The position numbers and the translations under genes were made by a program. DNA of 64,000 nucleotides from Elusimicrobiota bacterium. GTDB lineage: Bacteria > Elusimicrobiota > Elusimicrobia > UBA1565 > UBA9628. The stretch lies in NCBI GenBank assembly GCA_035533295.1, contig DATLUA010000014.1, positions 28,534 through 92,533 on the forward strand, read 5' to 3'. Below the pieces are notes generated by a model. It searched no databases, was not told where the DNA came from, and saw nothing but the letters and a program-made list of their open reading frames with translations. This document shows positions 10,119 to 43,839 of this stretch, piece by piece. The first letter of the stretch is position 1. Every line of letters starts with the position of its first letter.

Positions 10119-10195
10119 GGGCCGTCGGGGCCGCGATGGGAGGCCCGAAGGTCCCAGGAGGCAGCGATATTTTCAAGTCCGAAGGGTCAGGGCGG

Positions 10196-10269
10196 AGGTG
10201 CGAACGGGATTCGAACCCGTGAATAACGGTTTTGCAGACCGTCCCCTTGGACCACTTGGGTATCGCACC
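10196..10269 (-). tRNA. tRNA-Cys (anticodon GCA)
   Basis: The reverse complement folds as GGTGCGA/TCGCACC acceptor stem, D-arm CCCA AGTGGTCCAA GGGG, anticodon loop CUGCAAA and T-loop GGTTCGAATCC. The discriminator is U. No CCA is encoded. Confidence 0.85.
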
Positions 10270-10329: not shown

Positions 10330-11340
10330 TTAGAGCCCGCGGGCCCGGACGTCGTGGATTTGAATCATGCCCACGGCGTGGCGCGCGCGGTCCACGACGG
10401 GAAGGACGTTGAAGGGGTTTTTCCGGTTTTCCATGAGCGCGATGGCCTTGACGGCGGGCTGGCTTTCCTCGATGGCGGTGGGGCGGGGGTTCATGATGGT
10501 GCGGATATTTTTGGTGAAGATGTTCCCACCTTTTTTCAAGGCTTTGCGGATGTCGTAATCAGTCACAAGGCCGACGAGGCGGCCACGGCGGTCGGTGACG
10601 GCCGCCGCGCCGGCCTGCTTTTTGGTGATTTCCACGATAAGACGCTCGACGGAGTCTCCCACGAACACGGCGGGATTTAAATGCCCGCCGCGCATGATGT
10701 CGCGCGCGCGCAGGGTCAACCGCCGTCCGATCTGTCCGGCGGGGTGGTTGGCCGCGAAATGCTCAGCCTTGAAGTTGCGGCGCTTCATGAGCGCCACGGC
10801 CAAGGCGTCGCCGGCGGCCAGGGCCGCGGTGGTGCTCGCTGTGGGAGCCAAGTTCAAGGGGCAGGCTTCTTCAACGGCGGGAATTTCCAAGACGACGGCC
10901 GCGTGCTTGGCCAGGGTCGAACGCGGGCTCGCGGTCAGGGCGATGAGCCGGGCGCCGATGGAGCGGAGCGCGGGCAGGAGGCGGTTGAGCTCCTCCGATT
11001 CCCCTGATTTTCCCACGGCCAGGACCAAATCCTGCCTTTGGATGAAACCCAACCCTCCGTGCAGCGCGTCGCCAGGATCCAAATAGGCGGCCGGAGTGCC
11101 GGTCGAAGAGAGGGTCGCCGCTATCTTTTGGGCGATGAAGCCGGATTTGCCAACGCCCGTCACTATCACCTTGCCGCGGCAGCGCGCGAGGAGTTCCACC
11201 GCCTCGGCGTAGCTTCGGCCTACGGCTCGCCGTAGGAGAGCCAGGGCTCTGGCCTCGACGCCGATGACGCGCCGGATTTCTTTTTGCGCGGAGGCGCGGG
11301 AGGGACCTCGGGCGGCCATGGTGCGCATAGTGTAGTGCAT
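10330..11340 (-). CDS. kpsF: arabinose-5-phosphate isomerase (KpsF/GutQ family; SIS + tandem CBS)
   Basis: SIS motif GVGKSGFIAQKIAATL and C-terminal CBS pair. The 547-aa ORF is trimmed to MHYTMRTM... at 11340, which is preceded by GGAGG. The upstream 211 aa are low-complexity and have no SIS similarity. Confidence 0.85.
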   Translation of the reverse strand: MHYTMRTMAARGPSRASAQKEIRRVIGVEARALALLRRAVGRSYAEAVELLARCRGKVIVTGVGKSGFIAQKIAATLSSTGTPAAYLDPGDALHGGLGFIQRQDLVLAVGKSGESEELNRLLPALRSIGARLIALTASPRSTLAKHAAVVLEIPAVEEACPLNLAPTASTTAALAAGDALAVALMKRRNFKAEHFAANHPAGQIGRRLTLRARDIMRGGHLNPAVFVGDSVERLIVEITKKQAGAAAVTDRRGRLVGLVTDYDIRKALKKGGNIFTKNIRTIMNPRPTAIEESQPAVKAIALMENRKNPFNVLPVVDRARHAVGMIQIHDVRARGL

Positions 11341-11409
11341 TGCCTCCGCCGCCCGCAAGGAGCCGTTTTGACCCATCTTTGCGGGCATCAGGTAAGGTAA
11401 AATTAAGCC

Positions 11410-12051
11410 ATGCTCGAGGCTATGTCCGGCAAATATGTCCATCTGCGGCGGGGAATCATCACGGCCTACGAGTCCTTCAGCGTGCGGAAAGATGGAGAGT
11501 GGAAGGCGGCCTGCGGTAAAAACACGGTGGGACCGGAATATCCCGCGAATTTCATGATCGAGACGGCTTTGGACGAAACGTGGCGGGTCTCGGCGCTTGA
11601 GGCCAAGCTCAAAACCCGCTCGCGCGAGATTTCCTCGTCGTATCGTTGGTGCGCCGGCGGGTGGGGCGGCGGCGTCTCTGAAACCGGCCGAAACGCCCGT
11701 GATTGCCATATCCCCATGGTGGAAGGGCTGGAGGTTTGCTGTCCGCTGGCGTTCTTCGACGGCCTGCTTTTTCGCCGGTTGGGCCTTCTTGCAGCCAGTC
11801 AAATCCGCATCGAGCTGTTGGAGGTTCAGGAAGAAAGCCTGGAAACGGTCCAAACCTACCGGATTATCGAGCGGCTTGAGGACGAGCCGGCGCAGTGGCG
11901 CGGACAAAACGTTAGCGCCTCTCGCTATAGGATCACCGACCCCTTCGGTGAGATGGAAGGGGTTTGGGTTCATCCGAGAGGCGCCTGCCTGTGGCGGCGG
12001 ACGGCGGGAGGAGAGGAGCGTTACCGGCTTATGGAGTTTTCTGAAGCCTGA
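11410..12051 (+). CDS. hypothetical protein
   Basis: 213-aa ORF with protein-like composition in the gap between divergent kpsF and the island. No motif recognised. Confidence 0.4.
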   Translation: MLEAMSGKYVHLRRGIITAYESFSVRKDGEWKAACGKNTVGPEYPANFMIETALDETWRVSALEAKLKTRSREISSSYRWCAGGWGGGVSETGRNARDCHIPMVEGLEVCCPLAFFDGLLFRRLGLLAASQIRIELLEVQEESLETVQTYRIIERLEDEPAQWRGQNVSASRYRITDPFGEMEGVWVHPRGACLWRRTAGGEERYRLMEFSEA

Positions 12052-12115: not shown

Positions 12116-13954
12116 ATGCCTCCGGCATTTAACGTTCGACCCAAGGCGCTAGTCCTGCTTCCGGCTTGGCGGGAAAGAAGCTCGGATGAAGAGGCGTGGA
12201 TTTCCGCGCTGTTGCGCCAGTCGGGCCGATCTCTGGGCGCTATAATCGTCCATGACCCAGGATTCCCCGGCGAGCGCCGGGGCGGGCTTCATTTCTCCCA
12301 CCGGCACTGGCGGGATTTCCGGGAACAGTGCAAGGAGGCGATCTTCGAGAATCCCATCGAAGTCGTCGTCGCCATAGGAGAAGCCGCCAAGGCTGAGAAC
12401 CTTGACGCCTTGTCCGGCTGGGCGCCCAACATTCCGCGCGTCTCCTTGTTCTTGGAGGCGGATCTTTCCGGCCCAAGGCCGCTGCGTCTCAAATCTATTT
12501 CTGACTGCTCTGATCTCGTTTTGTACCGGGGAGACTGGAAAAGCGGCGGCGGGCGCGATTCGTGCATCGGGTTCATCCGAGAGCCGGAAGACGTCCTGCA
12601 GCACATCCGCAACCGCTTCGCGTTGCAATGGCTGCATGTCGGCGCGCCGGAGCCCAAGAGCCCGCCGACCGTCGATATTTTCACGCGTCGAGGGGGAGAA
12701 GCGCGCGCTCGGATAAAACGACTGATTGGCGGACTGGGTCCTGCGGCGCGCGCTCGGCATGTCGAGCTGAGTGGTTTTCGGCAAGCCAATGGAGGCGCGG
12801 CCTTTTGGAATGCAGCGTTTCGCTCTTCTCGCGCTGATTACCTGGTATTTTTGAACGAACTGTTTTGGCTTCCGGACAAAGCCCTGGCCCGGATGCTGGA
12901 GTACTTCAAGATGGGTTCCGCGCTGGCCGTGGTCGGCGCCGCGAGCCGGGAAGCCGCCGATTTGAAGGAAGTTCGCCGCCTGGCTTCGCTCCATCACATG
13001 TCCGGAGGGCATCGGGAATGCGGGCGCTTCCTGCATGCGCACTGCTGGATGCTTAGCCGGCAGGCCTTGAGGCAGACGGGCTTCTTGGATGAAAGGTTCC
13101 GCTGCCGGCGGTTCGCTCTCTATGATTACGGATTCCGCTTGCGCCAAGCCGGGTTTCGGCTTTTCACCGCCACGGATATCGCGGCTTGGCGCATCGGGAA
13201 GAAGGCGGGCGAGGCTTGTGAACCATCCAGCAGCGCCGAGCGAGATCTGGAGCTTTTGGAGAGAAAGTGGTGTGAAAACGGAATCGGAGCTATACTAAGG
13301 CTTTCCCGCAAAACCCAGGGCGGAGGGAAAGCCGTTGCTGCCCGAGCAAACGAAAAGGATTCCGTCTTCGGCGCATGGTTCCGCCACGAGCGGTCGGATT
13401 CCGCAGGCATGAGCGCTGAACTGAGGAATTTGATGAATCAATCCAGGCACGAGAGCGCGCGTTTGTACGCGGATTTCCGCGGGGCCATAGAGGACCGCCA
13501 TGACCGGTTGAGCCGCGAACTCCGGAAAGCTATAGACGAGCGTCATGGCCAGATCACCCGGGATATTTGGAGCGCGGCGGAAAGCCTGCGCGCCCAATCG
13601 CAACGGATGCAGCACGACATGGAAAGATCCATCCGGCCAGAACTGGCCGGCGTGCTGTATCAGCTCCAGAAGCAAGAATCCGAAATCCGCGCATGGGAGC
13701 GGGATAACAGCGCCCGGGTGACGGATTTGCGCGAGGATATGGACGACCGCTATGATAAGCTCGGTCGCGACTTCCGGAGAATCACTGCTCAGATGAGCAA
13801 ACAGTTGAGCGCGGTGGCGGGAAGCTTTTTAGCAGCCATCCTCGCATTGCAGCAAAAACCTGTTCCTTTTCTTAAGAATGGAACAAAAAAAATGGGGAAC
13901 GATGGTGAAAAAACCGTTAAACGCGCGTCCTCCGATTTCCCCAAGGCGAAATAA
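12116..13954 (+). CDS. GT2-like (divergent) glycosyltransferase domain protein with long C-terminal coiled coil
   Basis: The central region FALYDYGFRLRQAGFRL parallels the EDYDYCLRxxQAGY block of the GT2 genes at 46492 and 48426. The DxD position reads NEL (FLNELF), so it may be non-canonical. The last ~200 aa are a heptad-rich coiled coil (RDFRGAIEDRHDRLSRELRKAIDERH...). This is the first gene of the plus-strand operon. Confidence 0.5.
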   Translation: MPPAFNVRPKALVLLPAWRERSSDEEAWISALLRQSGRSLGAIIVHDPGFPGERRGGLHFSHRHWRDFREQCKEAIFENPIEVVVAIGEAAKAENLDALSGWAPNIPRVSLFLEADLSGPRPLRLKSISDCSDLVLYRGDWKSGGGRDSCIGFIREPEDVLQHIRNRFALQWLHVGAPEPKSPPTVDIFTRRGGEARARIKRLIGGLGPAARARHVELSGFRQANGGAAFWNAAFRSSRADYLVFLNELFWLPDKALARMLEYFKMGSALAVVGAASREAADLKEVRRLASLHHMSGGHRECGRFLHAHCWMLSRQALRQTGFLDERFRCRRFALYDYGFRLRQAGFRLFTATDIAAWRIGKKAGEACEPSSSAERDLELLERKWCENGIGAILRLSRKTQGGGKAVAARANEKDSVFGAWFRHERSDSAGMSAELRNLMNQSRHESARLYADFRGAIEDRHDRLSRELRKAIDERHGQITRDIWSAAESLRAQSQRMQHDMERSIRPELAGVLYQLQKQESEIRAWERDNSARVTDLREDMDDRYDKLGRDFRRITAQMSKQLSAVAGSFLAAILALQQKPVPFLKNGTKKMGNDGEKTVKRASSDFPKAK

Positions 13955-15097
13955 ATGAGCCCGCGCCTCAGCTTGATTTTTAAGCTCCTCGCCGAGAAAG
14001 TCGACGCCGGCGTCGCGCGGCTGGACGGAAAAAAAGACGGCCAGCCCATCCGCGAGCTGCATTTGGAGCTCACCCACCGCTGCAACCTAAAATGCGTCAT
14101 GTGCCACCATTGGGAGATGCCTTTCAAGGATCGGGAATCGGTCAAGCGCGAGATGAATCTGGCGCAAATCCGTTCCTTCGTCGAAGGCTCGCAAAGGCTG
14201 AAGGACGTGGAAATCGTGGTCTTGACCGGCGGCGAGCCGTGGCTTAGGACGGACATCGTGGATGTCGCAGCTTTTTTATCCAGCCATTATCCCAAGGCGT
14301 CCTTGGGTATCTTGAGCAATTTCTGGAACACGGAGATGGTCCGCCGGCGCTTGAACGAGCTGCGCGCGCGCGGAGTCAAAAACCTCTGGCTGGGCTCTTC
14401 CCTGGACGGCTTGGAGGAGGCGCACGATGAGGTGCGCGGGCAAAAGGGAGCCTTTAAAGGCCTTATGGAAACCGCGCGCATGATGCGGGCGGAGTTTCCG
14501 GAGGTCCACTTCAGCTTCAGCTTCACCATCACGCCCAAGAACTACCGCGAGCTTTGGCCCGCCTACGAACTTGTCTCGGGCATGGGCTTGTGGTTCGGCG
14601 CCCAAATGGTGGTCGAGCACCAGAAATTCGAGGCGCCCGAGACATTCTCCTGGACCGATGGGCAGCTTTCCGAGATTGAGGGGCAAATTGAGCGGATTTT
14701 GCGGCACCTGGCCGATGAAAACCTGGCTTTGGAGCGCTTGATGCAAGGCAAAGACCGCGAGTCCCTGTGGCTTTGGACCAGACTTTTGTACTGGTGGTAC
14801 CTGGGCAAATACGCGCGCAAGCCCGAACGCTTCTTCAAGGACTGTCTGGCGGGGCAGAGATACGCCATGCTCAGCCCCGAGGGCGACGTATTCTTTTGTC
14901 CCGTGAACAAGCATCGCACCATCGGCAACGTGAAGGAGGCATCGTTCGACGGGGTCTGGGATTCTCGAAAAGCCGAGTCGGAACGGGGCTACGTGGATTC
15001 CTGCCAATGCGACTGCTGGCTTAATTGCATCGCCAATCCCGTTCTAGATCGCGCGATGGCGCTCGGGACGGGCAAGGCCGAGGGCGCGCTGCGATGA
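13955..15097 (+). CDS. radical SAM/SPASM domain protein
   Basis: CNLKCVMC radical SAM motif. C-terminal SPASM-type cysteines (FFCPVNKHRTIGNVKE...FDGVWDS...CQCDCWLNC). The start is immediately adjacent to the upstream stop. Confidence 0.85.
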   Translation: MSPRLSLIFKLLAEKVDAGVARLDGKKDGQPIRELHLELTHRCNLKCVMCHHWEMPFKDRESVKREMNLAQIRSFVEGSQRLKDVEIVVLTGGEPWLRTDIVDVAAFLSSHYPKASLGILSNFWNTEMVRRRLNELRARGVKNLWLGSSLDGLEEAHDEVRGQKGAFKGLMETARMMRAEFPEVHFSFSFTITPKNYRELWPAYELVSGMGLWFGAQMVVEHQKFEAPETFSWTDGQLSEIEGQIERILRHLADENLALERLMQGKDRESLWLWTRLLYWWYLGKYARKPERFFKDCLAGQRYAMLSPEGDVFFCPVNKHRTIGNVKEASFDGVWDSRKAESERGYVDSCQCDCWLNCIANPVLDRAMALGTGKAEGALR

Positions 15098-18066
15098 AAG
15101 TCGCCCTGGTCCAGGCGCCCTACGGCTACCGCGGCCGCGAGGCCCCGCCCTTTTCCGTAGTTTGCCTGGCCGGCTACGTGCGCCATCACGGCCATGCGCC
15201 GCTTTCCATCGATTTCGGCAACGCCCTTTACCATGCCAGTTCCCCGGATTCGCGGGTCATGTGGAATGCCGACCGGTATTCCTTCTGGGAAAATCCCGAC
15301 GCCATCGAACGCCTGCTTCATGAGACCCGTGGAACCACGGACGCTCTTATCCGGCGCATTCTCGAGAGCGGCGCGCGCGTCATCGGCTTCGCGACGCATA
15401 CCACGTCTTTTCTGGCGAGCTTGGCGCTGGCCGAAAGAATCAAGCGCGAGGATCCCTCTCGCCTCATCGTTTTCGGCGGCTACCAGTGCGCGCGCGAGAA
15501 GTCCGGCCTCGCCTTCGCGGCCGATTGGCGCGTCGACGGCGTCGCCGTCGGCGAGGGGGAGCAAACCCTCGTCGAAGCCCTGGCCGGCGTGGAGCGCACG
15601 GGACGCCTGCCGGCAATTCCTGGCCTTCTGGTGCGCGGCGAGGACGGCCGCGTCGTCGATTCCGGCGACCGCGAGCCCATCATGGACATGGACTCGATGC
15701 CGTTCCCGGATTATTCCGACTTTCGGGAGGACATCCGCGCCGGGCTTTATTCCGATCCGCGCCGCCTCGATGTCTTCGACGGGCGCAGTTGCGTGCGGCG
15801 CTGCGCTTTTTGCAACGAGTGGCAGTTTTGGGGGCGCTTCCGCTCCCGCAGCGGACGGCGGATTTTAGAGGAAATTCGGCACCAGATGTCGGAGCATCCC
15901 ACCATCAACCATTTTTATTTTACGGGGCTTCTGGTTAACGGCAATCTGCGCGAGCTCTCGCGTTTCTGCGACTTGGTTCTGGAAAGCGGCCTCAAGTTCA
16001 CCTGGGGCGGGCAGTCCATCGTCCAGCCCGGCATGGATGAAAAGATGCTCAAGAAGATGGCCGCGGCCGGCTGCCGGTGGCTCGGCTACGGCGTCGAGAG
16101 CGGATCTGAGGCGGTGCGCTGGCGCATCAATAAGAAATTCACCAACGAGAACGCATACAAGACGCTCCGAGCGACGGCGGAGGCGGGCATCAAGGCCCAA
16201 ATCAACGTCATGTTCGGCATGCCCAGCGAAACGCGTGACGAATTTCAGGAGACGCTGTCCTTCTTGACCCGCGTCAGACCGTACCTGGACTCGATTCTGG
16301 CCAGCCAATCCTTCTGCGTCATCGATAAGGACACGCCCCTGCACCGCAATCCCGAGCGCTACGGGATCACCAATCAGGATCACCACCTTTTTTGGGAATC
16401 CAACGGCGGCGAGAACAACTACGCCGAGCGCTTCCGGCGCTATGAAGAATTTTGCAAGCTGGCGCTGTTCTTGGGAGTTCCGGAAACTTCGGGCGTGCTC
16501 TCGCGCAAGCCGGATAAGTGGTTTTTGCTGGGCTCGTATTACGAGTATAAAAAGCAGCCGCTCAAGGCCGTGCTCTATCTGCGCCGCTCTCTCCTCCATG
16601 AAATTGTTGGCAAGGACACTCTGACCCGGCTGGCCGGGCTTTACGCGCAATTGCGGCATCCGGCCCGCGCCTGGGCTTTACTGCAGGCGGCCCTGAGTCT
16701 GACGCCCGAGGGCGCTGCGGATGCCGGCGACGATAGCCTGCGCGTCCGCCGGGACGCCCTTTTTCCTTCCGTTCAGGATAAGTCCCTCGCGATGATCTGG
16801 CTCAGGCGCAGGCCGTGGGGACGCGCCCTGCGCCTCAAAGAGGCGGATTCAGTTGCTGCGGAGCGTAACGGCACGGGGGAAGCCGCGCGCCGCGCAGCGA
16901 ACATCGCCTTGAACGGGGACGAGTTTAACGGCCGCAAGGAGGTCCTTTCCTCGACCCCGTCGTTGGTCACTTTGGGGACCCATAACGCGTGCAACGCCAA
17001 GTGCGTCTTTTGTCTGGAAGGCAGCTATTCGCGCTTTAGCCTCGATATCTACAAGAAATTTTTCGAGGCGAAGATGGGACACTTCATACGCCAAGCGGAT
17101 CGGGTGACTTTCACCGGCTTTGGAGAAATCCTGTGGATACCCGGCATCGAGGAGTTCTTGGACTACATCAATGAGACTCTCCCCGACGCGGAGAAAATTT
17201 TCACGACCAATGGGACGCCGCTGCGTCCTTCGGTTCTTGAACGCATCGCGAAGGGGAAATACGGCATCCAAATCTCGCTGCATGCCTCCCACGCCGCGCT
17301 TCATCAGGAATTGACCCTCTTGAACGGGCAGTTCGGACAAATCTTGGAAAATATCAGAAGCCTAAGCGCACTGCGGCAGCGCCCTGGATTGGATAAAAGG
17401 ATTTTCGTTCATTTAGTCAACGTTCTGACCCGGCGGAATATCGACGATTTGACCGATTTTATCCGAATGTCCGTGGATTTGGGCGTTCAGAGCGTCCGCT
17501 GTCAGCATGTGACGATGTTCGTTCCCGAGCATATCGAGCAATCTTGCTTTTTCGATCAGGAACGGGCCAACGCCAGCATCCGACGCGCCGCGACCTTGGT
17601 GGAGGCGATCAAGCTCAAGCACCCGAAGACGACTTTTATTGCCTCGTTGCCGCCTCTTTTTGGTTCCCGCGCCCAACTGCAAAACACCGTCTGTTACGAT
17701 CCGTGGCAGCATGTCTATGTCGAACTCCAGGGCTCGGTCATTCCTTGCTGCATGTGGGGCGACCACATTGGGAACTTGAACAAGGGCGATGATATCGACA
17801 AGGTGTGGAACAGCCGATTCTACCAGGACTTGCGCCGCGGCATGGCTTCCGGGGATCCGCATCCTTGGTGCAAAAGCTGCGTGCGCTACGCCGGCTACAA
17901 CGTGGACAGTATTTTCTGCCACATCACCAACCGTCCCGAGGCCCAAAAGGCAGTTTTACGGGAAGTTCTGCGGCGAGGCTTGCCTCTGGAAAAATCCGAC
18001 AAGGCCGCGGCCGCGAAAATGCTCGGCAAGAATATGCCTGCCGGTTCGGGGGTCCTCGCGGCATGA
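15094..18066 (+). CDS. fusion: B12-binding-domain radical SAM + TPR-like linker + second radical SAM/SPASM domain
   Basis: The N-terminal half has MKVALVQAP, a GEGEQTL cobalamin-domain motif and CVRRCAFC. The C-terminal half has CNAKCVFC plus SPASM (VIPCCMWGDHIGNL...VWNS...CKSCVRYAG). ATGA overlap with the upstream gene at 15094. The ORF is trimmed from 15025. Confidence 0.85.
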   Translation: MKVALVQAPYGYRGREAPPFSVVCLAGYVRHHGHAPLSIDFGNALYHASSPDSRVMWNADRYSFWENPDAIERLLHETRGTTDALIRRILESGARVIGFATHTTSFLASLALAERIKREDPSRLIVFGGYQCAREKSGLAFAADWRVDGVAVGEGEQTLVEALAGVERTGRLPAIPGLLVRGEDGRVVDSGDREPIMDMDSMPFPDYSDFREDIRAGLYSDPRRLDVFDGRSCVRRCAFCNEWQFWGRFRSRSGRRILEEIRHQMSEHPTINHFYFTGLLVNGNLRELSRFCDLVLESGLKFTWGGQSIVQPGMDEKMLKKMAAAGCRWLGYGVESGSEAVRWRINKKFTNENAYKTLRATAEAGIKAQINVMFGMPSETRDEFQETLSFLTRVRPYLDSILASQSFCVIDKDTPLHRNPERYGITNQDHHLFWESNGGENNYAERFRRYEEFCKLALFLGVPETSGVLSRKPDKWFLLGSYYEYKKQPLKAVLYLRRSLLHEIVGKDTLTRLAGLYAQLRHPARAWALLQAALSLTPEGAADAGDDSLRVRRDALFPSVQDKSLAMIWLRRRPWGRALRLKEADSVAAERNGTGEAARRAANIALNGDEFNGRKEVLSSTPSLVTLGTHNACNAKCVFCLEGSYSRFSLDIYKKFFEAKMGHFIRQADRVTFTGFGEILWIPGIEEFLDYINETLPDAEKIFTTNGTPLRPSVLERIAKGKYGIQISLHASHAALHQELTLLNGQFGQILENIRSLSALRQRPGLDKRIFVHLVNVLTRRNIDDLTDFIRMSVDLGVQSVRCQHVTMFVPEHIEQSCFFDQERANASIRRAATLVEAIKLKHPKTTFIASLPPLFGSRAQLQNTVCYDPWQHVYVELQGSVIPCCMWGDHIGNLNKGDDIDKVWNSRFYQDLRRGMASGDPHPWCKSCVRYAGYNVDSIFCHITNRPEAQKAVLREVLRRGLPLEKSDKAAAAKMLGKNMPAGSGVLAA

Positions 18067-18800
18067 CCGAATGGTCCGGGCGGCTCGAGGGCGACGCCGT
18101 CTGGAGCGGCGACGTATTGGTCTCCGGGGACGTGGTCGTTCCGCCGGGCGCCAAGCTGCGCGTGGCAGCCGGCACCCGGGTCAGCTTCGCTTCCCGACCG
18201 AAGTGGTCCTGCGCGGTTTTTCGCGCGGCGCCGGAGGGCTACCCCATCGAGGCATCCGATCGGGAAGCCTGCGATCTCGTGGTTTTGGGCCAGCTCGAAG
18301 TCGCTGGCTCACCGGAAAACCCTGCCGTCTTTGGCGGCCAGGACGCCCAGTGGGGCGGCATGATTTTTTTGGAGCGCGCGGCGGCAACTCTCCAGCATTG
18401 CGTAATTAAAGTTGGAACTGAATACGCTCTGCAGGCTTTCGACGATGCGCGCTTGGCCCTGGAGGACTGCGGGTTGGAAGAGGCGCAGGTGGGAATCGCG
18501 TCCCGCGGGCTTTCCCACGTTAGCATTTTAGGCGGCCGCGTGCGCGCTGGGCGCTGCGGCGCGGTGGCCTGCGAAGGCTCGCGTATAACCTTGGACAAGA
18601 CTCAGATTCTGGATTCGCCGCAAGGGCTCTGCGCGGAGGATTGGGCGCTCGTCCGGGCGACGGGATCCCGATTCACGGCCAACAGAGATTTCGCCGTTTC
18701 GGCCCGAGGGTATTCCTGGGCGCGGTTCGACGGCTGCGACTTTGAGAAATCCGGCGAAACGGCTCTCAGGTGGGAACATGCCAGAATCGATGTCCGCTAG
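18063..18800 (+). CDS. right-handed beta-helix repeat protein
   Basis: Repetitive G-x-V/L beta-helix rungs (GDAVWSGDVLVSGDVVVPPGAKLRVAAGTRVSF; LGGRVRAGRCGAVACEGSRITL). ATGA overlap at 18063. The ORF is trimmed from 17805. Confidence 0.6.
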   Translation: MTEWSGRLEGDAVWSGDVLVSGDVVVPPGAKLRVAAGTRVSFASRPKWSCAVFRAAPEGYPIEASDREACDLVVLGQLEVAGSPENPAVFGGQDAQWGGMIFLERAAATLQHCVIKVGTEYALQAFDDARLALEDCGLEEAQVGIASRGLSHVSILGGRVRAGRCGAVACEGSRITLDKTQILDSPQGLCAEDWALVRATGSRFTANRDFAVSARGYSWARFDGCDFEKSGETALRWEHARIDVR

Positions 18801-20145
18801 GCTCTTTCGCGGCCTGTTCCCCTACGCTGAAAAGAGGGTGGCGCGGCGGCTCTGTCGTCTCGGTCTTTGGCGCAAGCTCGCCAATTATCTTTGGGTTGAA
18901 TTTCTAATCGGGCGGGGCTCCGTTCGCATGTGGGGGGGCAAGCCCTACTGGCTCACCGTCGATCCGACGAATTTTTGCCAGCTCCACTGCCCCTTTTGCC
19001 CCACGGGCGCCAACCGGGGGGTGCGCGGTAAATCGTCCATGTCCCTGGAACATTTCAAGAAGTTCCTCAATCGCGTCGGTCCGTGCGTCATCCACATGGA
19101 CATGATGAATTGGGGCGAGTCGCTGCTGAACAAGAACCTGCCGGACATGATTGCCCACGCCAAGCGCTACGGCATCGAAGTCAAGCTCGACGCCAACTTC
19201 AACGATGTCTCCGAGGAGACCGTTGAGAGGCTCGTCCTGTCGGGCCTCGACGTTCTGAGCGTCTCCATCGATGGAATTTCCCAGGAGACCTATGGCCGAT
19301 ACCGCGTCGGCGGGAAACTGGATCGGGTTTTGGCGAATCTTGAGGTTTTGGTGCGTAAGCGCCGGGAACTGGGTCGAGCCACCCCGCACATCATCTGGCA
19401 ATTTCTGGTTTTCCGCCACAACGAGCACGAGGCGGGAGGCGTCGAGTCATTCGCGCGCGCGCGCGGCGTGGACCAAGTGAGCTTCGTGGCCCCCTTCCTG
19501 CCCAACGAGCCGGGTTATTTGTCGGAATGGTCCGCTCGCGCGCCCAATTTTCGCCTTTACCCCCTGCCGGAAAAAGAACCGACGCCCGAGGAAATGGAGC
19601 GCGCTAAAAACAGCGTTCATGTAAAGCAGGTTCCTTCGGCGGAGGCTTTTCACGCGCGACGGTTTCAGTCCCGCCACCTGCTGAACTGGATATACCTTTC
19701 CGGCTTACTGACGCAGGCGCGCGGTCTTGAGAGTGGGATGAGGGAAATCTGGCGGCGGATGAGGGCGGCCATTTCCCAGGCGAAGGCTTCCGCGGCGGGC
19801 TTGGACACGGCGCCTTTTTCCGGAGCCAAGGGAGGCGCTCGCGCTATTTGCAAATGGCCCTGGGCCGGCATGGCGGTTAATCCCAACGGCAGCGTGTCGC
19901 CCTGCTGCAGCATTGAGAGCGAGTCCGACGATTTCGGTAGCGCCTTCGCGCAGGGCTGGGGAATGCTTTGGAACGGCCCGAAATATCGCGCGTCCCGACG
20001 ACATGTTCGCCGTTACGTTAAAAATCGCCGCGGAGTTCTTCCACACGCGGATCATGTCTGTGAACGCTGTACGGCCATCGGCTACGCCAATTTTAAATTT
20101 CCCATTCAGTGGACCAAGGACGCGCCGGAGGGCAAAAGCGCATGA
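18778..20145 (+). CDS. radical SAM/SPASM domain protein
   Basis: CQLHCPFC motif. C-terminal SPASM (NPNGSVSPCC...GMLWNGPKY...CERCTAIG). Start chosen at the ATG at 18778 with AGGTGGG upstream; the TTG at 18742 is an alternative. Overlaps the upstream gene by 23 nt. Confidence 0.8.
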   Translation: MPESMSARLFRGLFPYAEKRVARRLCRLGLWRKLANYLWVEFLIGRGSVRMWGGKPYWLTVDPTNFCQLHCPFCPTGANRGVRGKSSMSLEHFKKFLNRVGPCVIHMDMMNWGESLLNKNLPDMIAHAKRYGIEVKLDANFNDVSEETVERLVLSGLDVLSVSIDGISQETYGRYRVGGKLDRVLANLEVLVRKRRELGRATPHIIWQFLVFRHNEHEAGGVESFARARGVDQVSFVAPFLPNEPGYLSEWSARAPNFRLYPLPEKEPTPEEMERAKNSVHVKQVPSAEAFHARRFQSRHLLNWIYLSGLLTQARGLESGMREIWRRMRAAISQAKASAAGLDTAPFSGAKGGARAICKWPWAGMAVNPNGSVSPCCSIESESDDFGSAFAQGWGMLWNGPKYRASRRHVRRYVKNRRGVLPHADHVCERCTAIGYANFKFPIQWTKDAPEGKSA

Positions 20146-22109
20146 AGGCGGCCCTTGTCCAGCCTCCCGTCTGGTGGACCGTTGACCCGCCCTTGGGCTT
20201 GGCGCAAATCGCCGGCTGTCTCAAGCATCACGGCCACGAGGTGTTCGTATTCGATTTGAACATTCTTCTTTGGAAGGACCGCCTCAAGAAATACGAAAGC
20301 CTGTGGGGATGGGAGCAGTTCCATTTCTGGAACCAACCGGAGTTCGTCTCGCGCTTCTTTGCGGAGCATGAAGCGCTGGTCAGCCGCTACGTCGAGTCGA
20401 TTCTGCGCACGGACGCGCCCGTCATCGGATTGTCCGTGCACAACGGCTCGCACTTGGCCGCCTTGGAAATCGCGCGCCGCATCAAAGCCGGCGATAAGCG
20501 CCGTAAAATCGTTTTGGGGGGACAATATTTTTTCTTCGGCGACAAGGTCAAGGAGATGCTCTCGGAGTCTTGCGTCGACGCCGTTGTCTGCGGAGAGGGC
20601 GACGAGTCGTTCCCGGAACTCATCAGGCGCCTGGATTGCTCCGGCAGCATTGAGCCGCTGCCCGGGGTCTGGATCAAGCGCGCGGGCGGGCTGATCTCCG
20701 GCGGAGAGCCTATTGCCATCAGGAACTTGGATCGGGTGCCCTTCGCCGATTTCACAGGTTTTCCAATGGAGCTCTACACCGATCCGGAGCGCCTGCCCAT
20801 CGCCGCCAGCCGCGGCTGCGTCTGGCAGTGCCGCTTTTGCAGCGCACGCGCTTTTTGGAGCGGCTACCGCTACATGGGCGGAGAGCGCATTTTCGCGGAA
20901 GTCCTGCACCACCGCAAACTCTACCCGCCGCGCGGCCACGTGGAGTTCTACGACATCACCGCCAACGGAGACGTGAAGGCCCTGCACCGCTTCAGCCGGC
21001 TCTGGATCGACGAAGTGACCGCTCGCCCCGCGCGCGCCACGGGCTGGAAAATCAACGCCATCATCCGTCCGGAGATGACACCCGAGGTGTTGCGCGATTT
21101 GCGCAAGGCTAACTGCCACGACATCATCTACGGCATTGAGAGCGGATCGCCCAGGCTGCTTAAAGCGATGAACAAGGGCTTCGTCGTCCCCGTGGCGGAG
21201 GAAGTTCTCCGGAATACCCGCGCGGCCGGCATCGTGACCGTGGGCAACTTCATGTTCGGCTTCCCCGGTGAGACGGAGGAGGATTTCGCGCAGACGCTCG
21301 AGTTTTTGCGCCGCAACCACGCCAGCTTCAGCCGAGTCTACGCCAGCGCCACGTTCACGAGCCTCGAGGAAAAAAGCTATCTTAAGGATCATCAAAAGGA
21401 TTTTGGAATCAAGGAAGTCCCGCCCGAGCGGTTTCACAACCTCTATTGGGAAAGCGACGACGGCGCTAATACCTATCCGGTACGCCTCGAACGCTACAAA
21501 AGATTCCGTGCCCTGGCGATTTCTTTGGGCATCGACGCTTATAAGGGGGTGAACGGTTCCTTGGAACAGGATCATCTGGCCAATCTGGCGCAATATCATC
21601 ACTACGCAGGCAAGCCGTTTTCCGCCGTCGCAAATTACCTTGATTATCTTGATGGCGACCTCTACCATGATCCGACCCACCGTCATTTGGCCGAGCAGAG
21701 GCCGGCTCTGGACGCGCTCCTACGCGCGCAAAAAGCGCTGACCAAGGCCAATCTTTTAGCCGAGGCCGTTCCCGAGGCGGAGGCCATTGGGCGGGACGTG
21801 GAGCGCCAAGTTCGCGATGGCGCCGGGGTCGCCTCTATTTTGGCTGAATGCAAAGATAGAAAGGGAGAAGCCTTTGAGTTGGCCCGCTTTCTAGCGCGGG
21901 CCTGGTGTTCCCTCAAAAGCTTGCCGGGGCAGTCTTTTCGGATATCATGGGAGGGAGGTTCGTTCGTCCTCTATTGGTCTCAGGAAAAGGCGCCGGGAAT
22001 CGCGGATTTGCGCGCTTTGAGGAGCCGTATGGACCTCCATTTAAGGCTCGCCGAGGTGGAAATTCGCCGCGGCGAGGACAGGAAGCCCGCGCCCGCGTGC
22101 GTGAGATGA
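20142..22109 (+). CDS. B12-binding-domain radical SAM protein (class B)
   Basis: MKAALVQPP N-terminus, GEGDESFPEL, ASRGCVWQCRFC motif. ATGA overlap at 20142. The ORF is trimmed from 20109. Confidence 0.85.
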   Translation: MKAALVQPPVWWTVDPPLGLAQIAGCLKHHGHEVFVFDLNILLWKDRLKKYESLWGWEQFHFWNQPEFVSRFFAEHEALVSRYVESILRTDAPVIGLSVHNGSHLAALEIARRIKAGDKRRKIVLGGQYFFFGDKVKEMLSESCVDAVVCGEGDESFPELIRRLDCSGSIEPLPGVWIKRAGGLISGGEPIAIRNLDRVPFADFTGFPMELYTDPERLPIAASRGCVWQCRFCSARAFWSGYRYMGGERIFAEVLHHRKLYPPRGHVEFYDITANGDVKALHRFSRLWIDEVTARPARATGWKINAIIRPEMTPEVLRDLRKANCHDIIYGIESGSPRLLKAMNKGFVVPVAEEVLRNTRAAGIVTVGNFMFGFPGETEEDFAQTLEFLRRNHASFSRVYASATFTSLEEKSYLKDHQKDFGIKEVPPERFHNLYWESDDGANTYPVRLERYKRFRALAISLGIDAYKGVNGSLEQDHLANLAQYHHYAGKPFSAVANYLDYLDGDLYHDPTHRHLAEQRPALDALLRAQKALTKANLLAEAVPEAEAIGRDVERQVRDGAGVASILAECKDRKGEAFELARFLARAWCSLKSLPGQSFRISWEGGSFVLYWSQEKAPGIADLRALRSRMDLHLRLAEVEIRRGEDRKPAPACVR

Positions 22110-22164: not shown

Positions 22165-23337
22165 ATGAAGACATCGACCATGGAAGCTGAAGCGTTGGCT
22201 GCGGTCGCGCAAAAAACGCCCCCCACTTTCTCCGCGCTTCGCCGCCGCCTTTTAGAGCAGCGGCAGCGCGAAAATGTCGCGCTCAACAATCGGGAATGGG
22301 AAGAGAAAAAAATAATTCTTTCCAGCACCCCGCAACGAATCTTCCTGCAAATCAACGCCGTGTGCAACGCGGATTGCGTCTTCTGCTCCAAGGGCTACGA
22401 TTACCCGCTTTTCCGCATTGATGAATACAGGGAGAAATACGGGAGGCAGATCACCCCGGTGCTGCAAAAAGCGCGCGAGGTCATTCTGACCGGCTCGGGC
22501 GAGTTCATGGGCCTGCCGGACGCCCCCAAGATCATCCGCTACTTCAACAACGAGTTCCCTCACGTCGAAAAATACATCGCCACCAACGCCTCCCATCTCA
22601 AACCCGAGATTGTGGATTTAATCGCGGGCTCCGGCAGCCGCTACACCCTGCAGATCTCGCTGCACGGCAGCGACGAGGAAACCCACAAGCTCATGATGCG
22701 CTACAACTCTTATCCGCGCGTCATGGAAAACGTCCGCCGACTGATGGAGGCGCGCGGCCGCGGCGGCAATCTCTCGATTTCCTTCATGTTCGTCATGACG
22801 ACCTTGAACGTGGAAAACCTTCCGGATTTTGTGCGCTTCGCCAAGGACATGGGCGCCGAACGGGTCTTGGCGGGCTATTTCTACATCTACGAGGCGCAGC
22901 AAAAATACCTGTCCCTCTATTTCAAGCAGGACTTGGCCAATAGAATCATCGATGAGGCCCGGCGCGTCGCGCAAGAAGTGGGCATCGAGGTCCGCCTGCC
23001 GCACAAGTTCGGGCAGCGGCCCGAGGCGTCCTCCAAGCCCACCTCCTGCATCGAGCCGTGGCATCAGGTGATGGTCAATCCTGACGGGGCGGTTCTTCCC
23101 TGCGACGTCTATGGGGGCTTCAACGAGAACTTGAACCAGAAAAGCTTTATGGAAATCTGGAACGGACCGGCCTACCGCGTGATTCGGGCCGCCCTGCGTC
23201 GAGGCGGGGGGTGCCTGACCACCTGCCCGCGGCATAACCCCATCGGCATCAACGATTGGCGCGCGCACGTCATCCACCGCCCCAAAGAGGACCGCCAAAT
23301 CGCGAAGGAGTATCGGGAGGCCCTGAGAAAGCCATGA
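22165..23337 (+). CDS. radical SAM/SPASM domain protein
   Basis: CNADCVFC motif. C-terminal SPASM (MVNPDGAVLPCDV...FMEIWNGPAY...GGGCLTTCP). Confidence 0.85.
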   Translation: MKTSTMEAEALAAVAQKTPPTFSALRRRLLEQRQRENVALNNREWEEKKIILSSTPQRIFLQINAVCNADCVFCSKGYDYPLFRIDEYREKYGRQITPVLQKAREVILTGSGEFMGLPDAPKIIRYFNNEFPHVEKYIATNASHLKPEIVDLIAGSGSRYTLQISLHGSDEETHKLMMRYNSYPRVMENVRRLMEARGRGGNLSISFMFVMTTLNVENLPDFVRFAKDMGAERVLAGYFYIYEAQQKYLSLYFKQDLANRIIDEARRVAQEVGIEVRLPHKFGQRPEASSKPTSCIEPWHQVMVNPDGAVLPCDVYGGFNENLNQKSFMEIWNGPAYRVIRAALRRGGGCLTTCPRHNPIGINDWRAHVIHRPKEDRQIAKEYREALRKP

Positions 23338-24293
23338 ACGCCGAAACCTCCCTGAACATGGCTTCCGCCTTGCCCAAGCGCACGGTTGTTTTCGCCTGGG
23401 ACATGCACTACAGTTGCAACTACCGCTGCCCTTACTGCTGGTACACCACGACCGGCTGGACGGAGCTGGCCAAGAAAAGCGTTTACAAGACGGCCAAGGA
23501 GTGGGCCGCGGTGTGGGAGCGGATGCACCGAAAATACGGCCGTTGCCAGCTGCGCATCACCGCGGGCGAGCCCTTCACATACCCCGATTTCCCGGACATC
23601 GTCAAAACCCTGACGCAGTGGCACGATGTGCAAATCACCAGCAACTGCTCGAACACCGAGGCCATGGAGAAATTCGCCGCCCAGGCCGATCCGGCCCGCG
23701 TCGAGGTGGACTGCACGTTCCATCCCCTGCAGGGCGAGTTCGAGGCTTTCGTGGAGAATGTTCTGCGCTTGAGGCGCCGCCAATTCACCGCCAACGTTTG
23801 CTACCTCGCCTATCCGCCGCAGATGCCCCGGATGGGAGAGTTCAAGAAACGCTTCAAGGACCGCGGCGTCTACATGAACATGGCCATCTTTTGGGGAAAG
23901 TACAAGGACAAGGACTATCCGTTCGCCTATACCGAGCAGGAAAAAGCCTGGATCAAGGAAGTCATCGGGTATGAAACCGGCCCCGAGACCGTCAATCTTG
24001 ATCCGCTGGTCATTAAAGGGAAAGTTTGCGGCGCCGGCCAGCGCTACGCCGTGGTGCAGGCCGACGGCAGGGTCTACCGCTGCGGCCAGCTTTGCCACGA
24101 GGGCATGTCCTTGGGCAGCATTTTCGATCCGGGGTTCGAGCTTTATCCCACCGGACGGCCCTGCGCCGTGGACTATTGCAAGTCCAAGGAATTTCAAGCG
24201 GCCTGGGAAGACGAGGAAAAGCAGAAGATGCTGCAGAAAAACGAAATTTTGGCTGAGGACGCCGGCGCCGCGGCGCCGGCACAGCGCGCATGA
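23334..24293 (+). CDS. small radical SAM paralog A (CNYRC-x-YC family, partial SPASM)
   Basis: FAWDMHYSCNYRCPYCW, a GEP motif (AGEPFTYP) and a C-terminal CGAGQRYAVVQADGRVYRCGQ...PCAVDYC. ATGA overlap at 23334. Confidence 0.85.
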   Translation: MNAETSLNMASALPKRTVVFAWDMHYSCNYRCPYCWYTTTGWTELAKKSVYKTAKEWAAVWERMHRKYGRCQLRITAGEPFTYPDFPDIVKTLTQWHDVQITSNCSNTEAMEKFAAQADPARVEVDCTFHPLQGEFEAFVENVLRLRRRQFTANVCYLAYPPQMPRMGEFKKRFKDRGVYMNMAIFWGKYKDKDYPFAYTEQEKAWIKEVIGYETGPETVNLDPLVIKGKVCGAGQRYAVVQADGRVYRCGQLCHEGMSLGSIFDPGFELYPTGRPCAVDYCKSKEFQAAWEDEEKQKMLQKNEILAEDAGAAAPAQRA

Positions 24294-25297
24294 CCTCCGA
24301 GCGCGCCGGAACCGCCCTGGAGCCGTCCGATAAGACGGCGTGGCCCTGGTGGAGCAACGAGGTCTGGGACCGCGTGTCTTTTACCTGGGATTTATGGTAC
24401 GGCTGCAACTACCGCTGTTCCTACTGCTGGTGGGAAATGGACAACCTCTGGGCGGAACTCGCGAAAAAACACCGCATCCTGCCACCGGAGCAGTGGCTTG
24501 CGTGCTGGGACCGGATTTACGATCTTTATGGAACGACGCGCGTGGACGTGCTTGGCGGGGAACCCCTGCGCTATCCTTCGTGGAAGCAGCTTTTCGAAGG
24601 GCTTTCGCGGCGGCATCGGGTTTCCATTACGACGAACCTTTCCGTTTCGATGGCGGATTTGCGGGAGATGACGGACCGGGTTTCCCCCGAGCGTATTCAT
24701 TTCGCGGCCAGCTACCACCCGCAGTTCGCGAAGTGGAATGATTTTATCGAGAAGATAGGATTCCTGAAGGAGCGGGGCTACTTCCCGCACGTTCTGGTCG
24801 TGGCCTGGCCGCCGCTGCTCAAGGACCTTGCGCGTTGGAGCGATTTTTTTCGGCAAGCGGATGTTCCCTTCACTACCAGCGTTTTCCAGGGTCGATATGA
24901 GGGAAGGGAATATCCCGAATCCTACACGACGGATCAGAGAGCGCTTTTGGGCTTGAATATTCCCATCGCGGAAGAGCAGCGCTACCGCTTGGAGCGACAA
25001 AGCACACAGGGCAAGCTCTGCGGCGCCGGGCACGTCTACGCGAACATCAAAGGGAACGGGGACGTCTACCGCTGCGGCCAGGATTGCCTCGGCGGCGCCA
25101 AGCCGCTTGGGAATATTTTCGATGTGGGCTTCGGTTTGCACAAGGCGCCGGCGCCCTGCCCGTATAAGCACTGCAGTTGCGGTGAGTTCGCGTTTTTATG
25201 GGAGGATTGGACCCGGAAAAAAGGGCGGCTTGAATTCGCCGTTGCCAATTCCCTGCGCAGACAAGAGGCGCAAACGCGGGAGGCCCGGCATGGCTAG
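24290..25297 (+). CDS. small radical SAM paralog B
   Basis: FTWDLWYGCNYRCSYCWW, GGEPLRYP and CGAGHVYANIKGNGDVYRCGQ...PCPYKHCSCGEF. ATGA overlap at 24290. Confidence 0.85.
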   Translation: MTSERAGTALEPSDKTAWPWWSNEVWDRVSFTWDLWYGCNYRCSYCWWEMDNLWAELAKKHRILPPEQWLACWDRIYDLYGTTRVDVLGGEPLRYPSWKQLFEGLSRRHRVSITTNLSVSMADLREMTDRVSPERIHFAASYHPQFAKWNDFIEKIGFLKERGYFPHVLVVAWPPLLKDLARWSDFFRQADVPFTTSVFQGRYEGREYPESYTTDQRALLGLNIPIAEEQRYRLERQSTQGKLCGAGHVYANIKGNGDVYRCGQDCLGGAKPLGNIFDVGFGLHKAPAPCPYKHCSCGEFAFLWEDWTRKKGRLEFAVANSLRRQEAQTREARHG

Positions 25298-26138
25298 CCC
25301 GCAGGTTCGCTTCACTTGGAACATCCACTGGAGCTGCAACTACCGCTGTTCCTACTGTTTTTTTGATGGACGCTGGGCGGAGTACGGACGTCGCAACGTC
25401 TACCAGAGCGTGGATCAGTGGATGGGACACTGGCGGCGGATTTATGAAAAATACGGGCGGTGCTATCTGACCATCAACGGAGGTGAGCCATTCGCGTATC
25501 CCAACTTCGTGGAGTTGATGGTCCAGGTCTCGTCTCTGCACTGGCCCATCAACGTCACCACGAACACGTCCTTGCACCTTAAAGATTTTGTCGGCCGCGT
25601 CGATCCGGCCAAGGTCTCCATCTCCATCAGCTTTCATCCGCAGTACCACACGATCGATGAGTTCCTCAAAACCGTGCGGTTCTTGAGAGAGCGCCGCGCG
25701 AACATCGGATGCATCAATTTCGTGGCCTGGCCGCCTTTTTTGAAGGATTTGGCCGAATATATCCGCCGGTTTCAGGCGGAAGGGGAGAGCCTCAAGGTTA
25801 TTCCCTTCATCGGCGCTCATGAGGGTGTGAATTATCCAGACAACTACAGCGAAGGGCAAAAAAAAATCCTGGGGCTCACCGATAATTGGCTGGAGAGCAA
25901 GCGCCACGAAGGCATGCTCTGCCGCGCCGGGCACCAGTCGGCGCTTCTTCTGCCGACCGGCAAGGTGGCCCGTTGTGGGCAAATCGGCGACCGCTATCTC
26001 ATCGGGGATTTTTTCCAGGAAGGGTTTTCTTTGATGAAAGAGCCCATGCCCTGTGATGAGCAATTTTGCCCTTGCGATGAGTGGAAAGTCATCCCGGATG
26101 AAAAGCCGCCGGAGAAGGCGGGGGCGTGGCTGCCGTGA
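25290..26138 (+). CDS. small radical SAM paralog C
   Basis: FTWNIHWSCNYRCSYCFF, GGEPFAYP and CRAGHQSALLLPTGKVARCGQ...PCDEQFCPCDEW. Start at the ATG at 25290, which overlaps the upstream stop by 8 nt. Confidence 0.85.
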   Translation: MASPQVRFTWNIHWSCNYRCSYCFFDGRWAEYGRRNVYQSVDQWMGHWRRIYEKYGRCYLTINGGEPFAYPNFVELMVQVSSLHWPINVTTNTSLHLKDFVGRVDPAKVSISISFHPQYHTIDEFLKTVRFLRERRANIGCINFVAWPPFLKDLAEYIRRFQAEGESLKVIPFIGAHEGVNYPDNYSEGQKKILGLTDNWLESKRHEGMLCRAGHQSALLLPTGKVARCGQIGDRYLIGDFFQEGFSLMKEPMPCDEQFCPCDEWKVIPDEKPPEKAGAWLP

Positions 26139-27502: not shown

Positions 27503-27518
27503 AAAGGGAGGAAGGCCT

Positions 27519-29229: not shown

Positions 29230-29256
29230 CGGCAGTCGAAGGCACAGGAGATTGAT

Positions 29257-43838: not shown

Positions 43839-43839
43839 C

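Follow-up and report, generated by a model that had tools for sequence, protein, structure and literature searches.

A cobalamin-type and a Twitch-type radical-SAM module joined in one protein of a radical-SAM gene island in Elusimicrobiota

The 64,000-nucleotide stretch of DNA analysed here (positions 28,534 to 92,533 of contig DATLUA010000014.1 of an Elusimicrobiota bacterium, assembly GCA_035533295.1; hereafter the window, by whose numbering all coordinates without a locus name are given) contains an island of radical S-adenosylmethionine (rSAM) genes, one of which (15094..18066, + strand) encodes two rSAM enzymes in a single polypeptide of 990 amino acids (aa). The question raised by this locus is why two such enzymes should be joined, and on what they might act. 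A preliminary description, made from the sequence without database searches, had read the fusion as the obligatory coupling of a cobalamin-dependent step to a SPASM-type step on the same substrate. The present analysis indicates that the fusion is probably a bifunctional module of a multi-rSAM pathway that tailors an exported glycan, built of two independently folding modules connected by a short flexible linker.

Two radical-SAM modules in one polypeptide

The reading frame stays open over 15025..18066 (+), and the fusion gene occupies 15094..18066 (+) as one unbroken open reading frame (ORF), its ATG at 15094 giving an N-terminus (MKVALVQ...) that agrees with the consensus start of the family. 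The database protein P0001, named only 'radical SAM protein [Elusimicrobiota bacterium]' and present on 3 contigs from several sources, is 100% identical to it, and the coordinates and single polypeptide of about 990 aa reported in the preliminary description are therefore exact. The features of the gene, whose B12-type half is designated N and whose C-terminal half is designated C1, are as follows.

15094..18066, +: whole gene, 990-aa rSAM protein composed of N and C1 (single ORF; P0001; AlphaFold2 model with pLDDT 91 and pTM 0.63)
15094..15693, +: predicted cobalamin-binding Rossmann-like domain, aa 1-200 (PF02310 at aa 80-162; OxsB-type folds)
15766..16293, +: rSAM core 1, aa 225-400 (PF04055, 78.5 bits)
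15790..15813, +: first cluster motif, C233-x3-C237-x2-C240 (CVRRCAFC), invariant in 92/92 homologues
16291..16506, +: post-barrel domain, aa 400-471, including the invariant C454 (conservation of 0.73-0.86 per alignment window)
16507..16827, +: TPR-like helical tail, aa 472-578 (helices of the model; TPR profile match)
16828..16875, +: fusion junction, a flexible, non-conserved linker of about 15 aa, aa 579-594 (pLDDT <50 at aa 584-594)
16876..17982, +: rSAM core 2 and Twitch domain, aa 595-963 (PF04055, 33.0 bits; PF13186, 41 bits)
16990..17013, +: second cluster motif, C633-x3-C637-x2-C640 (CNAKCVFC), invariant in 92/92 homologues
17683..17928, +: predicted auxiliary-cluster (Twitch) domain, aa 864-945 (C867, C885/C886, C926, C929, C942)

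Membership in the radical SAM superfamily (PF04055) is found twice in the one chain, each time with a Cx3Cx2C motif inside a domain that scores above the Pfam gathering threshold (GA). The second motif, CNAKCVFC (aa 633-640), lies where the preliminary description had placed it (about aa 640), but the first, CVRRCAFC, is at aa 233-240 rather than at about aa 250; it becomes aa 256-263 when numbering begins at an upstream TTG. Both motifs are invariant in 92/92 homologues of at least 850 aa, and the homologue search returned about 90 full-length relatives that carry the two. With the halves scanned separately, the domain order foreseen earlier (B12-binding and Radical_SAM, then Radical_SAM and SPASM) was recovered with every match above GA, including the second motif region, whose failure to score as an rSAM domain had been named as a refutation (33.0 bits, GA 29.5). 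Rfam and tRNA scans gave nothing bearing on the fusion gene.

That a missed stop or frameshift merged two genes during sequencing or assembly can be given practically no credence: all that speaks for it is the general prior of errors in contigs of metagenome-assembled genomes, whereas the identical protein occurs on 3 contigs, the combination of N with C1 recurs in 24 homologue clusters, and sequence conservation is present on both flanks of the junction. Fused orthologues in many independent assemblies exclude the frameshift or stop that the preliminary description had named as its refutation, and the in-frame fusion of N to C1 in at least eight independent species-representative assemblies (L007, L009, L010, L012, L013, L015, L042 and L043; related loci are numbered with the prefix L) refutes an artefact for practical purposes.

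Judged from its sequence and predicted fold, module N has the class-B, cobalamin-dependent-type rSAM architecture, in which a Rossmann B12 domain precedes the rSAM core. The Pfam evidence for the first of these domains is borderline (PF02310 matches aa 80-162 with 32.5 bits when the N half is scored by itself, GA 32.1) and the fold is clear (E 1e-17 to 1e-14); the Radical_SAM match spans aa 230-391 (78.5 bits, GA 29.5). Foldseek matched the N half to MgmA/QCMT (9e-18), TsrM, OxsB, CysS, TokK and AprD4, and the N profile matched OxsB (1e-16), MgmA (2e-13) and TokK (2e-8). To our knowledge AprD4 is not cobalamin-dependent, and because it is among the structural matches the fold alone does not prove the use of cobalamin. 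Module N resembles OxsB, MgmA/QCMT, TsrM, TokK and CysS in its succession of Rossmann B12 domain, rSAM barrel and C-terminal domain, but is only 11-18% identical to them and differs in its TPR tail and in being fused to a second rSAM enzyme. The strongest conservation of the entire protein, in the alignment of 92 homologues, is at aa 391-480, and the very conserved region 400-480 has no annotated counterpart in the structurally solved class-B enzymes. The earlier remark that the first half resembles stand-alone B12-rSAM proteins of the island holds (27-34% identity to g20109, g32550, g38853 and g26126, E 2e-84 to 4e-40). Among curated families, the N half scored 131.1 against TIGR03975 (cutoff 281.85), 111.3 against NF050148 (ApyD; cutoff 750) and 110.4 against TIGR03471 (HpnJ; cutoff 577.6), and it belongs to none of the three, all scores being below the curated cutoff; other weak matches included the HpnR and ladderane-lipid B12-rSAM families. 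Of these, TIGR03975 and HpnJ are the top NCBIfam matches of N, and neither a context of peptides made by ribosomes and then modified post-translationally (RiPPs) nor a hopanoid context is present here. Five extra cysteines in the B12 module (aa 132, 292, 327, 408 and 454; window 15094-16713) are conserved at 90-100%, C327 and C454 being invariant; lying outside Cx3Cx2C, they might ligate an additional cluster.

Module C1 matches both Radical_SAM (33.0 bits, GA 29.5) and SPASM (aa 867-929, 41 bits, GA 21.5), and the preliminary description had credited it with a full SPASM C-terminus. SPASM is a seven-cysteine motif (CX9-15GX4C-gap-CX2CX5CX3C-gap-C) that binds two auxiliary clusters (PMC6231123). 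The C-terminus of C1 has the first four of these cysteines (C867-x12-G880-x4-C885 and C926-x2-C929) together with the extra C886 and C942, and lacks the X5CX3C part; the Pfam match stands, but with 4/7 cysteines C1 is of Twitch type and not a SPASM protein proper despite its 41 bits. In the 92 homologues C867, C885, C886, C926 and C929 are invariant, and C942 is conserved at 90%. The top solved relative found with a C1-only profile is BtrN (3e-12, 49.5 bits), a Twitch rSAM enzyme (PDB 4M7S/4M7T) with which the rSAM core aligns and whose C169, C187, C232 and C235, which we take to be its auxiliary-cluster ligands, align one to one with C867, C885, C926 and C929. This alignment and the absence of X5CX3C identify C1 as a Twitch-type domain of the BtrN kind. 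The auxiliary cluster of BtrN has Cys4 ligation (PMC10337720), and by analogy C1 would most simply bind one Cys4 auxiliary cluster as BtrN does. BtrN, the 2-deoxy-scyllo-inosamine dehydrogenase, oxidises a sugar-like cyclitol by two electrons (PMC9012708). C1 differs from it as a distinct family that shares only 49.5 bits, with the extra conserved C886 and C942 and a longer core. The fold matches of the C half include SuiB, DesII, SkfB, BlsE, anSME and CteB, and BtrN was not among the top 50 Foldseek matches.

The two modules had been described as joined by a TPR-like helical linker. The TPR is real: aa 475-578 form helical hairpins in the model, and at positions 472-525 the N profile has a match (E 4e-9) to consensus TPR proteins. 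It is nevertheless a tail of the B12 module and not a linker, because split N orthologues retain their TPR Pfam matches. Split N orthologues align from aa 1 to about aa 540-560, split C1 orthologues begin at about aa 593-600, and the alignment gap fraction is 0.2-0.6 over aa 511-600. The true junction is the disordered and unconserved segment at aa 579-594; in the AlphaFold2 model (mean pLDDT 91) confidence is low only at aa 584-594 and in the last residues. How the two lobes are oriented towards each other is not confidently predicted, because the pTM is low relative to the pLDDT.

Split forms and alternative partners

Beyond N and C1, the modules of related loci are designated C2 (orthologues of g18742), U (orthologues of g13955) and s (small rSAM proteins), a prime marks the neighbouring paralogues N' and C1', and an equals sign denotes fusion. 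When 120 homologue clusters were sorted, 71 proved to be N+C2, 24 N+C1, 24 N alone and 1 U+N+C1; the homologues of 544-593 aa are true split N proteins. The search for split versions proposed in the preliminary description as a check on coupling found them as separate, adjacent genes in L001 and L002, where the C-half orthologue (60-63% identity) overlaps N as the next gene downstream. In L003 it is displaced by one gene, and L003, L022 and L031 all have another gene between N and C1. C1 is orthologous to stand-alone genes in L001, L002, L003 and Omnitrophota. In Omnitrophota the fusions that are 33-37% identical to the present protein have a C half orthologous to g18742 (C2; 52%, 251 bits), and the C1 orthologue (41%, 280 bits) is a separate gene directly upstream of N=C2. 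Matches of 33-37% identity and 95% coverage were considered as orthologous fusions and rejected, since their C halves are C2 and not C1.

A map of module order covering about 50 loci relates these states to one another. The order in Elusimicrobia is U N=C1 (bH) C2 N' C1' s s, with bH the beta-helix gene, and a triple fusion U=N=C1 occurs in L013 and P0015; other Elusimicrobia have unfused U N C1 C2 or U N C2 C1. In Omnitrophota the order is Wzm Wzt GT=U(=)C1 N=C2 N'=C1' s=s(=s), GT standing for glycosyltransferase, and the Endomicrobiales loci read Wzm Wzt s N U and have neither C1 nor C2 within 10 kb of N. The mapped fusions (GT=U=C1, N'=C1', N'=s=C1' and s=s=s among them) always join neighbouring genes, and the partner of N follows gene order, loci arranged U-N-C1-C2 having N=C1 and those arranged U-C1-N-C2 having N=C2. 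The unfused neighbours N' and C1' of the window have orthologues fused as 924-aa proteins in Omnitrophota (L004 14217-16991, L005 12740-15514, L006 12770-15544). Fused and split forms are intermingled on a neighbour-joining tree of the N module.

The adjacent split orthologues and the paralogous pair uphold the part of the earlier coupling claim that places both modules in one pathway; the obligatory pairing falls, with 71 of 120 clusters being N+C2 and 24 having N alone. Because the partners vary, the fusion points to a shared multi-enzyme pathway or complex and not to a unique two-step couple. With two rSAM domains in one chain and split orthologues in L001, L002 and L003, the protein is an analogue of the FbiC-type architecture.

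A wider search (E<=1e-30) yielded 1393 representatives of 50% clusters. More than one Cx3Cx2C motif was present in 77/146 newly listed best relatives, which carry two to five (47 two, 22 three, 7 four and 1 five); a 2331-aa relative has five Radical_SAM domains, three B12-binding stretches and one SPASM domain, and a 2689-aa relative has the order GT2-TPR-methyltransferase-B12-rSAM. The metagenomic megaproteins P0121, P0122, P0123 and P0129 (2096-2689 aa) have between three and five rSAM cores and between two and four B12-binding domains; GT2, TPR and class-I methyltransferase domains are further present in P0129.

Proposed glycan context and the radical-SAM island

In the Omnitrophota loci L004, L005 and L006 the island starts with Wzm, Wzt (with Wzt_C) and then a multi-GT protein of 1739-1974 aa. 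By Pfam and BLAST these giant proteins (L004 3160-8826, L005 3610-8829, L006 4066-9990) consist of GT2-GT2-GT4 followed by one or two rSAM/SPASM modules, of which the U type (the g13955 orthologue) is present in each and is followed in L006 by the C1 type. The 1974-aa protein of L006 thus has GT2-GT2-GT4, two Radical_SAM and two SPASM domains, and the C half of the present fusion shares 38.5% identity (271 bits) with the final module of that protein; L006 also has a PF00953 initiating GT. Wzm/Wzt genes are adjacent in L002, L004-L006, L009, L024, L031, L040, L041 and the Endomicrobiales loci, standing directly upstream in the close type-A relative L009 and also in L002, L031 and the Endomicrobiales loci. 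A lipid-linked glycan is proposed as the substrate because C1 and U are fused to glycosyltransferases and lie in a Wzm/Wzt context, and what the island decorates in Elusimicrobiota and Omnitrophota is most likely a sugar polymer of the cell surface.

ABC-transporter-dependent O-polysaccharide pathways combine Wzm/Wzt, with a C-terminal carbohydrate-binding domain on Wzt, and multi-domain GT polymerases such as WbdA of E. coli O9a. The orthologous loci resemble them in having Wzm, Wzt with Wzt_C, a multi-GT2/GT4 protein and, in L006, the PF00953 GT, and the window differs in that Wzm/Wzt are absent from it. We know of no ABC-dependent O-polysaccharide pathway with 10-15 rSAM modules or with rSAM domains on the polymerase.

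The island of the window extends from about 12.1 to 54.8 kb, with housekeeping genes on its flanks, and contains at least 15 rSAM modules, GT2, GT4, a GT-C/PMT_2-TPR protein, three SGNH/GDSL-TPR proteins, a beta-helix protein and an MBL-fold protein. From 12116 to 35865 its operon has no gap of more than 76 nt. The genes closest to the fusion are these.

13955..15097, +: g13955, module U, rSAM/SPASM, whose stop overlaps the start of the fusion gene (ATGA)
18063..18800, +: beta-helix (NosD-like) gene, starting in an ATGA overlap with the stop of the fusion gene
18742..20145, +: g18742, module C2, rSAM/SPASM, start codon uncertain; fusion partner of N in Omnitrophota
20109-22109, +: g20109, N', B12-rSAM, 666 aa; top in-window paralogue of the N half (31%, 2e-84)
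22165-23337, +: g22165, C1', rSAM/SPASM, 390 aa; top in-window paralogue of the C half (30%, 3e-56)

Judging by the ATGA overlaps in the sequence, the fusion gene is translationally coupled to the upstream U gene and the downstream beta-helix gene, the latter being syntenic in L001, L002, L007 and L009.

Other parts of the island have features of their own. Five small rSAM paralogues, each of about 340-440 aa (23256, 24290, 25107, 27519 and 29257; window 23256-30582, +) have weak matches to the STM4011 family, and their relatives are fused in Omnitrophota as proteins with two or three rSAM modules (571 and 619 aa in L004; 625 aa in L005; 983 aa with three Cx3Cx2C motifs in L006). One of the five, g29257, opens (29257-29320, +) with the Cys/Gly-rich peptide MSGCGDKCGGCGGGCGSES before its rSAM core, which could be a metal- or cluster-binding tail. 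A 668-aa protein with Sel1 repeats (41901-43907, -) shows an unusual 'N-terminal Twitch' order, its SPASM/Twitch-like Cys domain (aa 274-338) preceding a single rSAM core (CNFRCRMC, aa 388). The three SGNH/GDSL-family proteins (34231-35865, +; 35846-37102, -; 40234-41895, -), two of them with TPR repeats, have similar SGNH-TPR counterparts between the rSAM genes of Omnitrophota loci, e.g. L004 12772-14217. At the right end of the island, adjoining GT2 and GT4 genes, a 946-aa protein (51998-54838, -) has a long array of TPRs after its PMT_2 (GT-C, ArnT/PMT-like) membrane domain. At the left edge, a tRNA-Cys gene (10194-10269, -) adjoins a KpsF/KdsD arabinose-5-phosphate isomerase gene (10330-11973, -; 276 bits, above cutoff) with an N-terminal extension of about 230 aa. 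Three ORFs of the island are essentially without family assignment. A 612-aa ORF (12116-13954, +) has only a sub-threshold GT2 match, a 536-aa ORF (44816-46426, -) has no Pfam match, and a further island ORF (30552-31133, +) encodes 193 aa. The GC content of the island, 0.58-0.59, is slightly lower than that of the right flank, 0.64-0.66.

Proposed role, rival explanations and known systems

If the fusion is a bifunctional module of glycan tailoring, the island would build a lipid-linked surface glycan in the cytoplasm, where radical tailoring would take place before ABC export, and its rSAM modules would operate as a multi-enzyme assembly. Each module of the fusion would make its own 5'-deoxyadenosyl radical at its own [4Fe-4S]/SAM site, N at C233/C237/C240 and C1 at C633/C637/C640. 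N may then catalyse a cobalamin-dependent C-methylation or an OxsB-like rearrangement of a sugar residue, and C1 may abstract a hydrogen atom and pass a second electron to its Twitch cluster in a BtrN-type two-electron oxidation or a related step. Fusion would give 1:1 stoichiometry and proximity to two neighbouring steps inside a larger rSAM/GT assembly, to which the TPR tail may contribute.

Several observations weigh against this interpretation. The B12-binding Pfam score is borderline, falling to 30.8 bits in the whole protein (GA 32.1); class-B rSAM enzymes are not all methylases, OxsB being an exception; and among NCBIfam models N scores best against a subfamily of RiPP C-methyltransferases (131 bits, cutoff 282). 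No NCBIfam equivalog cutoff was reached by the fusion or by eight other scanned rSAM genes of the island. The 64-kb window contains GT2, GT4 and GT-C genes, but no Wzm/Wzt and no initiating GT, for which reason the link to a glycan is drawn from the orthologous loci and from fusions in genomes other than this one; nor were genes for modifying sugar nucleotides seen. The pTM of 0.63, set against a pLDDT of 91, gives no evidence of a fixed N-C1 interface, and the alignment behind the structure model mixes C-terminal halves of the C1 and C2 types.

It is a possibility to be taken seriously, though doubtful, that the fusion has no mechanistic meaning: adjacent rSAM genes with ATGA overlaps would merge by loss of a stop codon, and the modules would act independently, at different positions, at steps that do not follow one another or even on distinct intermediates, the fusion being near-neutral or only an aid to co-expression. 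The joining of neighbours only, a partner of N that tracks gene order, the interleaving of fused and split states on the N tree, the 24 of 120 clusters that are unfused, the Endomicrobiales loci where N is found with neither C1 nor C2 within 10 kb, the unconserved and disordered linker and the low pTM are all as this explanation would predict. It accounts less well for the fact that fusions of a B12-rSAM enzyme to a Twitch/SPASM-type enzyme arose repeatedly, as N=C1, N=C2 and N'=C1' and in megaproteins of as many as 5 cores, which suggests selection for physical association, or for the conserved TPR tail of N, such repeats being typical of interactions between proteins.

The nature of the substrate is the other point at which explanations part. 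A lipid or glycolipid (hopanoid-like, membrane-spanning or branched), or else a novel tetrapyrrole-type cofactor, seems unlikely as the target of the island. N does have its weak matches to HpnJ, HpnR and the ladderane-lipid families, g13955 weakly matches NirJ, AhbC and AhbD, and SGNH/GDSL 'lipase' and PLD-like genes are present; moreover, up to 13 rSAM genes were reported near group VI nitrogenase paralogues in Elusimicrobia by Meheust et al., these rSAM-rich clusters near NifH-like paralogues of groundwater Elusimicrobia being proposed to serve a tetrapyrrole-type pathway (bioRxiv 10.1101/765248). All family scores, however, are far under their cutoffs, the island has no lipid or tetrapyrrole biosynthesis genes, and the covalent fusions are to GT2 and GT4 domains; a lipid-linked glycan would in any case be compatible with glycan tailoring. 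A NifH-paralogue or cofactor context was rejected for this island, because neither the scanned ORFs of the window (200 aa or longer) nor the genes called in six related loci included one like nifH/D/K. Still less probable is a RiPP pathway, with N as a C-methyltransferase of peptides (PoyC/TIGR03975-like) and C1 as a cross-linking or epimerising peptide maturase of the SPASM/Twitch kind. TIGR03975 and ApyD head the NCBIfam matches of N, SuiB, SkfB and CteB are among the fold neighbours of C1, and SPASM enzymes are typically RiPP maturases (PMC10114670), but the scores are far under the cutoffs (131 vs 282 and 111 vs 750), no protein of the island has a PqqD/RRE domain, no protease or peptide exporter is present, and the modules occur in fusions with glycosyltransferases and beside Wzm/Wzt (with Wzt_C). 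A RiPP precursor was looked for and rejected, since operon gaps of at most 76 nt leave no room for its gene and the RRE domain is lacking; by these features the island does not classify as a RiPP maturation system.

Two-domain rSAM fusions are rare among characterised enzymes, FbiC being the classic case. FbiC, the F0 synthase, is a fusion of CofG and CofH in which each half makes its own 5'-deoxyadenosyl radical, and it resembles the present protein in having two complete rSAM domains per chain, with halves that are separate genes elsewhere and that serve one pathway (PMC11917521). It differs in that neither half is of the cobalamin or Twitch type and there is no sequence kinship beyond the rSAM core, CofG and CofH not being among the best 25 of 62 NCBIfam matches of the fusion; and the FbiC pairing is fixed, whereas the B12 module here has different partners by lineage. 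The fusion is thus closest to FbiC in architecture, and in its parts to class-B rSAM enzymes and BtrN. A literature search found no characterised fusion joining a cobalamin-type to a Twitch module and no description of this fusion or of the island; in a preprint on giant proteins of Omnitrophota, rSAM appears only in the list of Pfam modules. The wider system to which the fusion points may be new.

Carried further, glycan tailoring by this protein may, tentatively, be one part of a 'poly-radical-SAM' assembly, in which 10-15 rSAM modules (class-B, Twitch/SPASM and small STM4011-like) would be organised on, or in some lineages covalently fused to, a Wzm/Wzt-type glycan polymerase, would also be joined to one another in megaproteins of up to five rSAM cores, and would tailor a surface polysaccharide in series, by C-methylation, oxidation and possibly C-C or ring chemistry. 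If this is true, it would represent radical editing of a glycan to a degree without known precedent. The pattern of fusions acts as a Rosetta stone, tying about six uncharacterised rSAM families together and connecting them, by way of GT=U=C1 proteins, with glycosyltransferases and with a Wzm/Wzt exporter, and it makes a glycan a testable substrate hypothesis for many 'radical SAM protein' annotations in two uncultured phyla. Should that hypothesis prove true, the fused proteins would be convenient single-polypeptide starting points for biochemistry, and a new area of radical carbohydrate chemistry and cell-envelope biology would be opened in Elusimicrobiota and Omnitrophota.

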